The position numbers and the translations under genes are program-made. From assembly GCA_902384795.1 (NCBI GenBank), contig CABMDC010000004.1:1002-65001 (forward strand): a stretch of 64,000 nucleotides of DNA. Direction: 5' to 3'. Below the pieces are notes generated by a model, which did not search any database, had not been told where the DNA came from, and saw only the letters and a program-made list of their open reading frames with translations. Shown one piece after another: positions 4,003 to 54,391 of this stretch. Positions within the stretch are counted from its first letter, which is position 1. Every line of letters starts with the position of its first letter. The DNA comes from Candidatus Gugararchaeum adminiculabundum (lineage in GTDB: Archaea > Micrarchaeota > Micrarchaeia > Burarchaeales > Gugararchaeaceae).

Positions 4003-4042
4003 TGTGGTTGCATATTTTTAGAACACGGACAGACTTGAATTA
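4003..4042 (-). other. 23S processing stem, 3' half
   Basis: 4003-4012, 4021-4028 and 4034-4042 are complementary to 7339-7348, 7331-7338 and 7281-7289 respectively. They bracket the 23S as in archaeal pre-rRNA processing helices. Confidence 0.65.
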
Positions 4043-4046
4043 AGTT

Positions 4047-7000
4047 TTATAATGGATTTAGTAATTGCGGGCTGAATGAATCGCGTGAGCTCTTCACTTA
4101 CACCCCAATCCTATCAAACCCGTCTGCTACGGGCTCCAATATCGCCTCGTTTTGAGATTTGCTTCGACCTTAGATGCTTTCAGGTCTTATCAAATAGCGC
4201 GTAGCTGCCCAGCAGTGCCTTGTTAGACAACTGGTAAACCAGAGGCGCCGATCCCAAGTTCCTCTCGTACTCATGGGACCTTACTCTCAAGCGACAACAC
4301 TCCTAAGAGATACTACCGAACTGTCTCGCGACGTTCTGAACCCAGCTCGTGTAAGTCTTTAATGGATGAACAACCCAACCATTGGTGGCTCCTGCACCAC
4401 CAGGATGACTTAAGCCGACAGCGATGTACCAAACCGCGGGGTCGATGGGTATTTGAGTAAAACTCTCCCACGCCCAACAGCGAAAACACGAACTGCTAGA
4501 TTCCATTTAGTATCCGCACGCTAGTCCATCGACTGGCCTAGCATGCGCTAGAAATCTGCCTATGAATTCCTTATGCAGAACTTATTGAGGAAGAATTTCT
4601 AACTAAACGAAAACGATAGCAGTTCGTACGCAAATAATTTAGGGAGAGATTTATCTCTCGCCCGCGACGAGCCTGTTACCCCCGGGGTAGCTTGTCTGAC
4701 AGCTTGGACCCTCATCAAAAGGGATACCAAGGTTCGTTAAGCCCGACTTTCGTCTCTGCATTCAACGCTCTTATGAATACAGTCAGTCTAGCATTTGTCT
4801 TTTTCCCTTAACCTCGCATTTCTGACGCGAGTAAGCTAAACATTGGGCATCCTTGTTTCCTTATCGAGGATGTACCGCCCCAGCCAAACTATCCATCTGC
4901 CGCTGTCCCTAATTAGGTAAGCAGTGTATCAACCAGTGATTGGTGTTACAAAATCGCCTATTTGCACCCCGAAAGATGCAACATAGCGGCTCCCAATTAC
5001 GCTCCGCATTGATCAAGACACTACAACAACAGACTATAGTAAAGCTCCACGGGGTCTTCGTTTCCCCTTAGAAGTCCTCCGCATATTCACGGAGTAGTGA
5101 GTTCACCAGGTCCTAGACAGGGACAGTGGGAGGCTCGTTATGCCATTCATGCAAGCCGCCAATTAAGCGGCGAGGTATTACGCTACCTTAAGAGGGTCAG
5201 AGTTACCCCCGCTCTTTGCCGGCGCTTAGTTCGGTTGAAACCGAGTTTGACGTACCGGTAGTGAGCAGGCATCGACCACTATACTAAGCCTTACGACTTT
5301 GCAGTGATCTGTGTTTTTGATAAACAGTCGACCTCCCCTTGATACTGAGACCTGCAGTTCTTGTAAACCGCAGGCATAGCTTGTCCCGAAGTTACGCTAC
5401 TATTTTGCCGAGTTCCCTTGCCTAGGTCACCCTGCTACGCCTTGGCTTTCTCTGCCAGCAACACCTGTACTGGTTCTAGGTACGATCTTGTGGAATCGGA
5501 TTAGTTCTCTTTTCGTGTACCCTTTTTACATATTTTTTATTGCGCAATTTCCCGCGCGCAACCCGCGTTACGTTATCCCCGCCCAAAATAAGGCAGAGAA
5601 GTTTTTCCGTTAACGCTTTTTGCTTTAGCAAAAAGGGTTATTTCACGGGCTCCGGGAATCAATCGAAGTATTGCTACCCCTCCAGTTGTTATCCTGCTTC
5701 TCTTCATAACGAATCTCCACAGGACTGCAAAAGAAGAACAACCCTTGCGAATTGCTCGACCTATCCCCAAGCGTCAAGAACTAAACTTGTCTTGCGACGT
5801 CTATCCACAAGGTGCGGGAATTTTAACCCGCTTCCCTTTCATGCAATGGTGATTGGCCTTGCATTTAGGATCGACTTACTCTTGGCTGACAAACGTTGCC
5901 AAGAAAACCGTGTGCTTACGGCGTTCAGGATTCTCACCTGAATTAGATGTTACTAACACCAGGATCTTCATAACAAGCCAGTCCACACAACCTTACGGCT
6001 GTGCTTCTGCCCGGCCCGTTCGCCTCCCTACCAGATGACTGCCCGAAGGCAGTCCTCTAGGGTTTCGGTTTCTGACTTAGTCCCGTACATCTTCAGAGCC
6101 AGCAAACTCGACTGGTCCGCTATTACGCGTTGTTTAAAGGATGGCTGCTTCTGAGCCTACCTTCCAGCTGTTTTTGCTTGGAGACTCCTTCATATTAACA
6201 CTTAGTCAGACATTAGGGACCTTAACCCTAGCCATGGTCGTTCCCATGCAACAACACTAGCTTACCCAGCGTCGTCGACTCCCGTCTTCTACGACGTGTA
6301 TAGATTCGGAGTTTGACAACGAGGTGACACCTTTCGATGCCGCTCCCCGTGATCAGTGCTCTACCCCACACACTATCTCAGACGAGGCTATCCTAGGAGA
6401 TACTTCGGAAGGAACCCGCTATTGCCATGTTCGATTGGACTTTCACCCCTAAACGCACGTCACCCGAGCAGATATACTAGCAACGGTAGCGGTCCTCCAC
6501 CAGCTGAAAAGCCGGCTTCGACCTGCGCACGTATAGATCACAATGGCTTCGGGTCTGGCAATAGTGACTAATCGCTTTTTCAAACGACGCGCCTCGCTTA
6601 TCACTGCGCGCAATCGCTTTCGCTTCGCATTCCTGCTCGCCACTATCGCAAACTCCCTGGCCCTTGACTCAAGAAGGACGATGTAATATTGGTAGTCCCG
6701 CATCGCTTCCACCCTTGCGAATGGTCGCTTCTGCAGGCGTTCATTCCTTTCACACTACATCAACCTGTAGCCTTTCAGTTTCAGGCACTTTTAACCCCCC
6801 TGTTCGGGGTTCTTTTCAGCTTTCGCTCGCGCTACTAATACGCTATCGGTCTCAGATCTGTATTTAGAGTTGCAAGTCGATACTCGCATCTTCACGCCCC
6901 ATACTCGAGGGACCTTACTCGCATCGCTCCCTTCCATCTAACCTTCACCTACGAGGCTATCACTCTCTCTGGCACAACTTTCCAGTTGCTTCAGTTCAAT

Positions 7001-7280
7001 TAAATGGATAGTTGGAGCGCCCACATCTACGGCACATTGCTGTGCCGCATTCAGTTTGCTCTGTGCTGCTTTCAGTCACCCTTACTTACAGCATCCCTAT
7101 TGGTTTCTTTTCCTCCCGTTACTAAGATGTTTCATTTCACGGGGTATCTGCCCATTACTGGGTATTCGGGAACCTCCGGTTCAACGGCTGCATGCGCCTA
7201 GCCGGAGCTTTTCGCAGCTTGCCACGCCCTTGCTTTTATCTGAGCCAAGCCATCCTCTGAAAGGCTTCGTAACAAAACAC
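4047..7280 (-). rRNA. rrl: 23S rRNA (interrupted by a ~208-nt insertion; ends approximate to about 15 nt)
   Basis: Reverse complement contains the sarcin-ricin loop AGTACGAGAGGAAC (4258-4271). It also contains CTGAAAGCATCTAAG, ACGAGCTGGGTTCAGAACGTCGCGAGACAG, CCCCGGGGGTAACAGGCT, GAAGACCCCGTGGAGCTTTACTATAG and GGAACTCGGCAAAATAG, plus the 5' block GGATGGCTTGGCTCAG near 7255. About 3026 nt remain without the insertion. Confidence 0.95.
4447..4654 (-). other. ORF-less ~208-nt insertion in 23S helix 89 (intron or expansion segment)
   Basis: The conserved sequence runs GGGTAACAGGCTCGTCGCGGGCGAGAG, then the insertion, then ATCGACCCCGCGGTTTGGTACATCGCTGTCGGC. In E. coli (recalled from memory) only about 5 nt (UUCAU) occupy this gap. 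The insertion ends are complementary (CTCTCCC near the 5' end, GGGAGAG near the 3' end). No ORF is present. Confidence 0.7.
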
Positions 7281-7348
7281 TAATTCAAGTTATTATTTAT
7301 AGTTGACCTTTTTATGACTCAACTAATATTCCGTGTTCTGCAACCACA
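7281..7348 (-). other. 23S processing stem, 5' half
   Basis: Complementary to 4003-4042 (see that feature). Lies in the 16S-23S spacer immediately upstream of the 23S 5' end. Confidence 0.65.
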
Positions 7349-7497
7349 CTTCTGTCCACATGATTGAATGCGAAAGCATAGTCCGCACCCAACGCGAGAA
7401 AAAATCTAAAAAAATAATTCCGAAAATTTTCATTTTCGAAAAAATATTTCCGAGATATTTTTCCCGCCACGCTCGGAATAAAATTCCGAAACGTTTC

Positions 7498-7534
7498 GAG
7501 TCTTCAAGAGATTAATAGAGTTGTACGAATATTC
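7498..7534 (-). other. 16S processing stem, 3' half
   Basis: GAGTCTTCAAG (7498-7508) and GTTGTACGAAT (7520-7530) are perfectly complementary to 9777-9787 and 9755-9765. The two 11-bp helices are separated by an 11-nt internal loop on each side. Confidence 0.75.
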
Positions 7535-8050
7535 ATGCTCGCTCTATGCACATTCGCTTACTTAGTCTTTTTTTACAAGCAAACCAGACTGACTGATTTG
7601 TATAAAAAAGGAGGTGATCTATCCGCAGGTTCCCCTACGGATACCTTGTTACGACTTAGCCCCCCTCATGACATCTTAGTTCGACAACGCCATTAAAGCG
7701 CCGCCTCACTAAGAGATCACTTGGGTGACTTGACGGGCGGTGTGTGCAAGGAGCGGGGACGTATTCACCGCGCGATGCTGACACGCGATTACTAGGGATT
7801 CCAGCTTCATGGGGGCGAGTTTCAGCCCCCAATCCGAACTTAGGTTAGGTTTCAGAGATTAGCTTCCCCTTTCGGGGTTGCATCCCGTTGTCCTAATCAT
7901 TGTAGGCCACGTGTAGCCCAGGCGATTCGGAGCATACTGACCTACCGTCGCCCTCTCCTTCCTCCCATTTAACACGGGCAGTCTCCACAGAGTGCTCACC
8001 CCCCGGAGGAGATGATAGCAACAGTGGACAAGGGTCTCGCTCGTTTCCGG

Positions 8051-8648
8051 ACCTCTCAAGAAAAGTTAACATCATTCAGAACCGGTTAGATATCCTTTGA
8101 TTAGGGATATTTCTGAAATTTGCCTATAAAAAAACGGAAATCATCGCCCAGCACGAACAATTTCTTGTTGTGCTTGATTATGTGAAAATTCAAACGCGAG
8201 AGAATCATCTCGTCGTTAAGAGTTGCGTTCGCAAGATAGCATAATTTTTTCCCCTTGACAAGTTCCGTTCCTCCCATGGCATCAAAGACCCCTGCGATAT
8301 ACGCAGCAGCCTTGTCGTTTTTTTCACGGAAAATTTCCAGCGACTCGCGCTGGACTTTCTGGAAAAACTTTTCATATGCAGAATGGTAGAAAAAAATTTT
8401 GTCATCAACTCCCAGTTTGATTTTTTCCGGGGGCACGAGCTTGAGCTCGAGAATCTGCTTGAGGAAAATTTCGCACAATCGCGGATTTCCCTGGATGCCG
8501 ATTCCGTTATCGCTCCTGCGCTTGCTCCACAGGCCAATCAAATAGGCGAGTTCAGGTGTCAAATTTATTTTCATGCAAATCACAAATTTGTTTTCACATC
8601 GCTATTCCGTTGTACTATATTATTATACTTTTTTTCTTGAGGGGTTTA
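8051..8648 (-). mobile_element. 16S rRNA intron carrying a homing-endonuclease ORF
   Basis: The conserved block GTTAAGTCCGG / AACGAGCGAGACCC (around E. coli position 1090-1100) is split by about 598 AT-rich nt. The intron ends pair (CCTCAAGAAAA with TTTTCTTGAGAGG). CCGG is repeated at both junctions, so the boundaries are ambiguous by a few nt. Confidence 0.85.
8101..8583 (-). CDS. LAGLIDADG-family homing endonuclease (intron-encoded)
   Basis: 160-aa ORF inside the 16S intron, same strand as the rRNA. Two LAGLIDADG-like motifs are present: LAYLIGLWSKRRSD and AAYIAGVFDAMGG. Confidence 0.75.
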   Translation of the reverse strand: MICMKINLTPELAYLIGLWSKRRSDNGIGIQGNPRLCEIFLKQILELKLVPPEKIKLGVDDKIFFYHSAYEKFFQKVQRESLEIFREKNDKAAAYIAGVFDAMGGTELVKGKKLCYLANATLNDEMILSRLNFHIIKHNKKLFVLGDDFRFFIGKFQKYP

Positions 8649-8794
8649 CCGGACTTAACCGGACAGTTCGCACCACGAGCTGACGATGGCCATGCACTAC
8701 CTCTCGGCTCGTTAGGTAAGATCTTTAGTCTGACCTTCATCCTGCCGTCGCGCCTGGTAATGTTCCCGGCGTTGAATCCAATTGAACCGCAGCC

Positions 8795-8837
<43 letters not shown>

Positions 8838-9751
8838 ACCTTGCGGCCGTACTCCCCAGGTGGCAGACTAAACACCTACGCTACGGCACTGCATTGGCTC
8901 GAGGCCAACGCAACACCACAGTCTGCATCATTTACTGCTAGGGCTACTCGGGTATCTAATCCGATTTGTTCTCCTAGCCTTCGTCCCTCACTGTCAGACG
9001 CGTTTTGGTAGGGCGCCTACGCCACTGGTAGTCCGTATAGGATTACAGAATTTTACCTCTACCCCATACGTACTCCCTACCTCCCCCGCTCTCGAGCCAT
9101 GACAGTATTTCTTGCGCGCATTGAAGTTAAGCTCCAATATTTCACAAGAAACTTATCAGGCCAGCTACGGACTCTTTAGACCCAATATTCGTGGAGATCA
9201 CTCGGGCTGCCAGTGTTACCGCGGCGGCTGGCACTGGTCTTACCCACCCCTTATTCTACGAGCGTTCTAGGCTCGTCAAAAGATAGCCTTTAAGGCTACC
9301 ACTCAGAATTTCCTTATCACGCTTGCGCGCATTGTAAAGGTTTCGCGCCTGCTGCATCCCGTAGGACTAGGACCCTTGTCTCAGTGTCCTTCTCGGGGCT
9401 CCGACTCCCATCGCCCCCACTGATTATCGGCTTGGTGGGCCGTTACCCCACAAACTACCTAATCAGGCGCAGTCTCATCCTAGGGCGGACCGGCTCCAAT
9501 TCACCGGCCTTTTAAACGATAAAGCATTCCAGCATCTATCGCCCATATGGTATTACCCTCAATTTCTCGAGGTTATCCCCTTCCCTAGGGCAGATTGACT
9601 ACGTGCTACTGAGCCGTACGCCACCCACTGAAGTCAGTGGGTAGACTTGCATGGCTTAGGCAAATTCTGATAGCAATCCCCTCCAGCAGGATCAACTGGA
9701 GTTGCACACTAAAGTCTACTACATAAATTTCGAATTGTTCGAGGTTGCACT

Positions 9752-54282: not shown

Positions 54283-54391
54283 GGGCCCGTGTGGCAACCT
54301 GGATAACCGGCGGGGCTTCGAATAGCCCTTTTGCGCAAGGCGCATGGTTGGAGGCAACCCCGAGATATGGGTTCAAATCCCGTCGGGCCCG
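54283..54391 (+). tRNA. tRNA-Arg (anticodon UCG) with 35-nt intron after position 37
   Basis: Folded by hand. Acceptor stem GGGCCCG/CGGGCCC. Anticodon stem CGGGG/CCCCG, with loop CT-TCG-AA once 54322-54356 is removed. T arm ATGGG-TTCAAAT-CCCGT. Discriminator G, no encoded CCA, T-tract follows. Mature length 74 nt. The D stem is only 3 bp (UGG/CCG). Confidence 0.8.

Follow-up and report, generated by a model that had tools for sequence, protein, structure and literature searches.

Are the roughly two hundred extra nucleotides (nt) that interrupt the 23S ribosomal RNA (rRNA) gene of Candidatus Gugararchaeum adminiculabundum beside the peptidyl-transferase centre a part of the mature ribosome, or are they removed from it? 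The question is raised by a stretch of 64,000 nt of this archaeon (assembly GCA_902384795.1, contig CABMDC010000004.1, positions 1,002 to 65,001), referred to here as the window, in which the rRNA operon lies on the minus strand; all rRNA features below are given in window coordinates on that strand. The 23S rRNA gene (4039..7283) matches the Rfam model RF02540 over its full length (model positions 1-2987, 2395 bits), and a blastn search with the 23S exon against the whole genome, a groundwater Micrarchaeota genome of 1.47 Mb assembled into 26 contigs with 93% completeness, found the gene in a single copy. An insert of 203 nt (4452..4654) sits in the apical loop of its helix 89 (H89), between the nucleotides corresponding to E. 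coli G2472 and U2473. The insert is probably an archaeal protein-spliced intron with a relaxed bulge-helix-bulge (BHB) motif, of the kind termed HBh' or bulge-helix-loop.

The placement of the insert is given by alignment and by uninterrupted relatives. In the Rfam alignment of the archaeal large subunit (LSU) rRNA, 207 nt of the window stand against four model positions in the hairpin loop after GGGGUAACAG, and the hairpin directly following this ring segment is, by comparison with the E. coli sequence, helix 89 (E. coli 2455-2496). According to the Rfam consensus structure line, the 5' strand of the helix (E. coli 2455-2472; 4655..4672), which ends in GGGCGAGAG, lies on one side of the insert, and the remaining loop, UACCCA, together with the 3' strand (E. 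coli 2473-2496; 4428..4451) lies on the other. For comparison, 40 relatives (Micrarchaeota with genomes of 0.7-1.8 Mb) were searched with the 3' third of the 23S gene and the H89 tip was extracted from each locus. In 11 of these the loop is uninterrupted and reads GAGAG, then UACCCA, UACAUA, UACACA or UUCAUA, then UCGAC, which the loop letters left in the window match. The order in the window is GAGAG, 203 nt and UACCCA-UCGAC, with no native nucleotide replaced and the 7-nt loop intact around the insert. The interrupted bond, between G2472 (window 4655) and U2473 (window 4451), is unambiguous, because the two ends of the insert have no letters in common, and joining the flanks regenerates GAGAG^UACCCA-UCGAC (carets mark splice positions), the loop of the 11 uninterrupted relatives.

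The initial annotation had likewise put the insert at the tip of helix 89, and the Rfam LSU alignment agrees, without shifting it to a variable region. The end proposed at 4654 holds, but the proposed start at 4447 lies 5 nt off, the letters 4447-4451 being native loop (UACCC), and the idea that about 208 nt stand in for about 5 nt gives way to a pure 203-nt insertion in which nothing was lost. As had also been remarked, the insert has no open reading frame (ORF), the longest stop-to-stop frame being 36 amino acids. Its fold is far more stable than that of shuffled sequences (minimum free energy (MFE) of -98.8 kcal/mol versus -68.7 +/- 4.4 for the shuffles; z = -6.8). Blastn of the 203 nt against the whole genome, the two other rRNA inserts of the window (described below) and the members of its own family gave no paralogue and no significant primary-sequence similarity, the element being present once in the genome.

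Together with the exon, the ends of the insert form the junction on which the assignment rests. Four exon nucleotides, C2467 G2468 A2469 G2470 (4657..4660), face CUCA at intron positions -3 to -6 (4454..4457) in a short central helix (H), CGAG/CUCA, in which intron CUC makes three Watson-Crick pairs with exon G2468-A2469-G2470 and the fourth position is a C.A. Three nucleotides, A2471 G2472^A (4654..4656), the last of which is intron nt 1, lie between H and an inner helix (h') and form the 5' splice-site bulge. In the inner helix, intron nt 2-13, UAAAUCUCUCCC (4642..4653), pair with GGGAGAGUUUUA (4458..4469), as supported by covariation and as present also in the MFE fold. The complementary ends CUCUCCC and GGGAGAG to which the initial annotation had drawn attention are real, and belong to this helix of 12 positions (11 pairs and one U.U mismatch). 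The 3' splice site, A A^U2473 (4451..4453), is found two nucleotides 3' of H, single-stranded in the constrained fold and with no closing outer helix. On each strand, the archaeal splicing endonuclease cuts two nucleotides beyond the 3' end of the central helix, and the geometry of the 3' cut is symmetric to that of the 5' site, giving a predicted product, GAGAG^UACCCA, which equals the uninterrupted loop.

The same junction recurs in 14 distinct inserts of 43-275 nt, including some from public Micrarchaeota assemblies, all of which interrupt the G2472/U2473 bond. Every one of these begins with A and ends with CUC(A/G)AA, and in every one a helix starts from intron nt 2, with its partner strand at nt -7 and upstream. 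When the register of this inner helix was scored over eight positions in the 14 introns, 87% of the cells were paired, as compared to 35-53% when the register was shifted by 1-4 nt, and each of the 12 positions is occupied by two to five different Watson-Crick or G.U pair types. Opposite C2467, 13 of the introns have A at position -3 (C.A), whereas L012 has G there; this G makes the central helix a perfect 4-base-pair (bp) CGAG/CUCG, and the register is thereby confirmed.

The H89 loop is interrupted in this lineage at a second site as well. Five relatives (L007, L017, L027, L028 and L029) carry mini inserts of 45-59 nt after C2477, five nucleotides downstream of the first site. Read by hand, these are textbook BHB introns: the centre is GUAC/GUAC, the two 3-nt bulges are CC^N and NU^A, and the inner helix covaries. 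Their product reads GAGAGUACCC^AUCGAC. Endonuclease-type splicing therefore operates on the H89 loop in the lineage. The mini introns are like the 203-nt intron in the loop that they occupy, in lineage and in the spliced product GAGAGUACCCAUCGAC, but differ from the family at 2472 in their length, in their fully canonical motif and in having no sequence in common with it. Both introns occur in four relatives (L005, L009, L012 and L026), in which a 5-nt micro-exon, UACCC, separates them. In these double-intron loci G2472 serves in the central helix of the second intron once the first has been removed (G.U), and until then the last A of the first intron can take its place (A-U); since either pairing partner is usable, either splicing order seems possible. 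As a separate observation, the word GUUUUCGUUU is common to the mini intron of L007 and L028 and to the window intron (about 4608-4618), either by chance or as a trace of common origin.

The genome encodes both host enzymes expected for a relaxed BHB intron, that is, a broad-specificity endonuclease and the ligase RtcB (575 bits). The single splicing endonuclease gene (395 amino acids, domains PF01974 and PF02778; G000 contig 18, locus L031:880-2064) specifies a protein of the three-unit epsilon2 type, with a full-length match to PDB 4FZ2 (E 3.8e-128), the splicing endonuclease of ARMAN-2 (PMC3488258). The enzyme types that cut relaxed motifs are epsilon2 and (alpha-beta)2 (PMC5829648, PMC12397907), and bulge-helix-loop forms are competent substrates (PMC12397907). 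According to a paper from 2018 the three-unit epsilon2 type was known only from ARMAN-1, ARMAN-2 and Mia14 (PMC5829648); its occurrence in the present 1.47-Mb groundwater Micrarchaeota genome lies beyond those three.

From the junction and the enzymes, we infer the following course of events. In the precursor, CUCA at the 3' end of the intron would pair with exon C2467-G2470, a pairing which would set the 3-nt bulge (A2471 G2472^A) against the 12-bp intron helix and place the 3' cut (A A^U2473) two nucleotides past the central helix on the opposite strand. The epsilon2-type endonuclease would then cut both sites, and RtcB would join the exons, restoring the universal loop G-UACCCA, and would probably circularise the intron. 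Native loop letters that are intact around the insert are what is expected if the loop re-forms after excision.

The RNA data for excision of the H89 intron are only suggestive. Contigs from four groundwater metatranscriptomes, the runs which best match the words of the 23S gene, were placed on the gene; the best of them share no more than 0.44 of the 23S words, and the exact strain may be absent from them. In runs X1 and X6, other parts of the 23S rRNA are covered at a depth of 11-127 by contigs with 0-1 mismatch over 150-276 nt, and a near-identical organism is therefore present in these two. Contigs joining 4451 to 4655, an exact skip of the 203 nt, are found in all four runs and are not assignable to this organism. 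Where a joint shows different letters in the loop (AGGAG, ATGAA and others), its source is another organism. The bin 4475-4583, which lies wholly inside the insert, has zero contig depth in the four runs, which is a weak hint only.

A second ORF-less insert of the same gene can be followed further in the RNA. It comprises 130 nt in domain III (5512..5641; 139 nt against 11 model positions in the Rfam alignment). Its central helix of 4 bp is perfect (CGUG/CACG), the two predicted cuts both read AA^A, and the inner helix spans 11-12 bp. RNA contigs with one mismatch over 254-276 nt run from 5641 directly to 5510, without these 130 nt; to within the 4-nt ambiguity of the joint, the sequence that they show there is the product predicted, CCCGUGAA^AAGAGAAC. 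The domain III insert is either spliced and ligated, or precisely missing in a strain, and either is the behaviour of an intron.

Several observations weigh against a spliced intron in the H89 loop. The motif is non-canonical and includes a C.A mismatch in the central helix; the 3' bulge has no closing outer helix, and the 3' site lies within about 14 single-stranded nucleotides of the constrained fold. In the nearest-neighbour model the splicing-competent fold is 5.9 kcal/mol above the MFE, and the MFE fold pairs GAG(2470-72) with CUC, leaving a 1-nt bulge. Further, the RNA joints at H89 have only 25-29 nt on their shorter side and are identical to the sequence of intron-less relatives, for which reason they are no proof of splicing in this organism. 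By comparison with the canonical hBHBh' form, H is reduced to three Watson-Crick pairs and a C.A, the 5' bulge is well formed, and the 3' site is unclosed. As the 3' bulge has no outer helix and the competent fold lies above the MFE, the motif is classed as relaxed (HBh' or bulge-helix-loop), a geometry with which its short H, its proper 3-nt 5' bulge and its symmetric 3' cut within a loop agree. The search for a BHB-type motif at the junctions that the initial annotation had proposed hence ends in this relaxed form. A candidate outer helix, GGG(2464-66) with CCC(2475-77), was rejected: it needs a 4-nt bulge, is absent from the constrained fold, and is lost in the relative L006, the loop of which reads UACACA.

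Instead of being excised, the 203 nt could stay in the mature 23S rRNA as an expansion segment, a long rod extending from the H89 tip, which we regard as unlikely. The insert does fold as a stable rod coaxial with H89, its length varies among the relatives, as is the case in expansion segments, and the spliced RNA joints at H89 are not organism-specific. However, the native letters of the 7-nt loop are kept on both sides of the insert, which is needless if they no longer make a loop, and CUCAAA and the bulge geometry are conserved around an interior so diverged that its mean column identity is 42%. Moreover, relatives carry a textbook BHB insert five nucleotides away. The tip of H89 adjoins the A-site transfer RNA (tRNA) accommodation corridor and the factor-binding face, as seen in orthosomycin-ribosome structures, and a rod of 200 nt at this tip would be expected to block function.

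Quite improbable, too, is an excision that is not followed by re-ligation, leaving the 23S rRNA in two parts that helix 89 keeps together in the manner of bacterial intervening sequences. The cleavage signals that this calls for are present, and fragmented rRNAs occur elsewhere in nature. Yet RtcB is encoded in the genome, near-identical RNA contigs show ligation across the domain III insert of the same gene, and joined H89 contigs are found in four of four runs, though these are not organism-specific.

There is very little likelihood that the insert is a self-splicing ribozyme, either a minimal group I intron or a member of an unknown class. In length it comes close to the minimum for group I introns, such introns occur in Micrarchaeota 23S genes (PMC6125680), and the same-site family has conserved collinear motifs, but the members have no conserved exon-pairing guide and differ in their 5' intron ends. 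A group I intron is also rejected on its boundaries, G^A...A^U, where the last letter of the 5' exon is G instead of U and that of the intron A instead of G. The model Intron_gpI finds no match to the group I core at E<=10 here, nor at E<=5 in four homologues, as compared to 84 bits in the control L051 (MNVF01000017). The scan for group I and II introns that the initial annotation had called for was run with Rfam over 4400-4700 at E<=10 and returned only LSU rRNA and a chance microRNA match. In two relatives (L002 and L004) a group-I-like word, GAGACUA, and a UAGUCC word were considered as a group I remnant and discarded, as the two stand in the wrong order and have no covariance-model support. 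That annotation had preferred an excised intron, either of the BHB type or a minimal group I intron. Its first option is borne out by the junction anatomy, the covariation, the enzymes and the suggestive RNA, while the second falls with the boundaries and the lack of a covariance-model match. Finally, it is hardly credible that a dead gene or an assembly artefact is involved, the interrupted 23S gene not being the functional copy: rRNA copies can collapse in assembly, and this assembly is in 26 contigs with 93% completeness, but outside the insert the gene has the score of an intact LSU rRNA over its full length, the same insertion point recurs in 19 of the 401 genomes sampled from the phylum as well as in independent public assemblies, and no second 23S copy was found in the assembly.

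The long introns at the 2472 site have no blastn-level similarity to one another, with a mean column identity of 42% in the interior, and share an architecture consisting of a terminal helix, a U-rich internal loop, a long helix and a branched tip. They also share the collinear motifs CGUUUUC, UCGAUGG (CGAUGG), GAUACUA or GUGUAR, and UUCGUGU, with UUUAUGG in some members. Of these, UCGAUGG is found in eight of the 13 long introns at the site and, according to the folds, is carried on a hairpin, which in the window lies at 4523..4534. Two public contigs, MNVE01000016 (L036) and MNVF01000017 (L051), carry an H89 intron of the same-site family. The 5' junction word TCGCGGGCGAGAGAY marks the 19 genomes among the 401 sampled, in a patchy distribution and with a reversed-pattern control that gave 0; this count is a lower bound, many of the sampled genomes being without an assembled 23S gene. 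The word occurs in 8 of 30 genomes of family f11, in both genomes of f8 and both of f16, and in none of the three largest families, and its presence varies even inside a genus (3 of 15 in g35). A scan of the genome collection with a 17-mer gave 24 matches, eight of them in Micrarchaeota and the others chance matches in bacteria.

It is doubtful that the H89-loop introns are more than selfish passengers and make up a conserved structured RNA family with its own function. Such a role could lie in the non-native pairing between exon GAG and intron CUC, which could block maturation of the peptidyl-transferase region until cleavage by the endonuclease; if this is true, the non-native pairing at H89 would act as an inbuilt checkpoint late in 50S assembly. 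A stable circular RNA, formed after excision, is another possible role.

All stable-RNA genes of the window are interrupted, as the initial annotation had stated: the 16S gene by an insert of about 600 nt, the 23S gene by the two inserts described above, and a tRNA-Arg(UCG)-like gene, the last being recognized by eye only. In the 16S (small subunit) rRNA gene (7609-9702, Rfam), the insert (8051-8648, from Rfam and sequence reading) interrupts GGUAAAC^GAGCGAGACCC close to E. coli position 1093. Its ends pair (CCUCAAGAAAA with UUUUCUUGAGAGG), and its 3' end echoes a portion of the exon (GUCCGGAAAC). A 16S site near 1093 has been reported in Crenarchaeota, in Aigarchaeota and in a cultivated DPANN archaeon (PMC8784108). 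The tRNA-like gene lies on the plus strand (54283-54391) and reads as interrupted after position 37 by about 35 nt; it was not called by ARAGORN, which reported no tRNA in the window, or by Rfam at the gathering threshold, which reported the two rRNAs only. In the spacer of 325 nt between the 16S and 23S genes (7284-7608), no tRNA or other Rfam family was detected at E<=1.

Archaeal rRNA introns cut at BHB motifs have been known since the 1980s, and the type of intron described here is itself an ordinary archaeal kind. Among them are the 23S introns of Crenarchaeota (Desulfurococcus mobilis with I-DmoI, Pyrobaculum, Aeropyrum and Staphylothermus), which occupy other sites in domains IV and V. 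Like the window intron, these interrupt conserved and functionally central parts of the 23S rRNA and depend on the tRNA splicing endonuclease, acting at a junction helix flanked by bulges, with ligation restoring the universal sequence. They differ in that they often have a length of 500-700 nt that includes a LAGLIDADG gene and usually have the canonical motif, whereas the window intron is located in the H89 loop at 2472/2473, lacks an ORF, uses a relaxed motif without an outer helix and belongs to a family with a structured core. Of the same lineage and enzyme type (epsilon2) as the window intron are the non-canonical tRNA introns of ARMAN-2 and other Micrarchaeota (HBh', hBH and bulge-helix-loop; PMC3488258, PMC5829648, PMC12397907). 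In these, too, a proper 3-nt bulge holds one of the splice sites, while the other lies in a loop by a short helix; their substrates, by contrast, are pre-tRNAs with introns of some tens of nucleotides, as compared to 203 nt and a 23S host in the window.

The site is new as judged from a full-text literature search, in which no description of an H89-loop intron was found. The nearest record is that of Nawrocki et al., who reported BHB introns beside group I introns in the contigs MNVE01000016 and MNVF01000017 (PMC6125680); the group I sites are LSU 1923, 1931, 2500 and 2593, while the BHB introns are given without position or description in the text and supplement (PMC6125680).

With this finding the map of archaeal rRNA introns gains a new site in the apical loop of H89, next to the peptidyl-transferase centre, and with two sites 5 nt apart this loop is an intron hotspot in the lineage. 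For annotation, inserts of this kind explain over-long 23S genes in DPANN archaea and ought to be taken out before rRNA phylogeny or structure modelling is attempted. Being ORF-less and having a conserved core, the family also offers a tractable substrate for tests of how relaxed motifs are recognized. For the biology of the Micrarchaeota, the finding suggests that their broad-specificity epsilon2 endonuclease processes rRNA besides tRNA.

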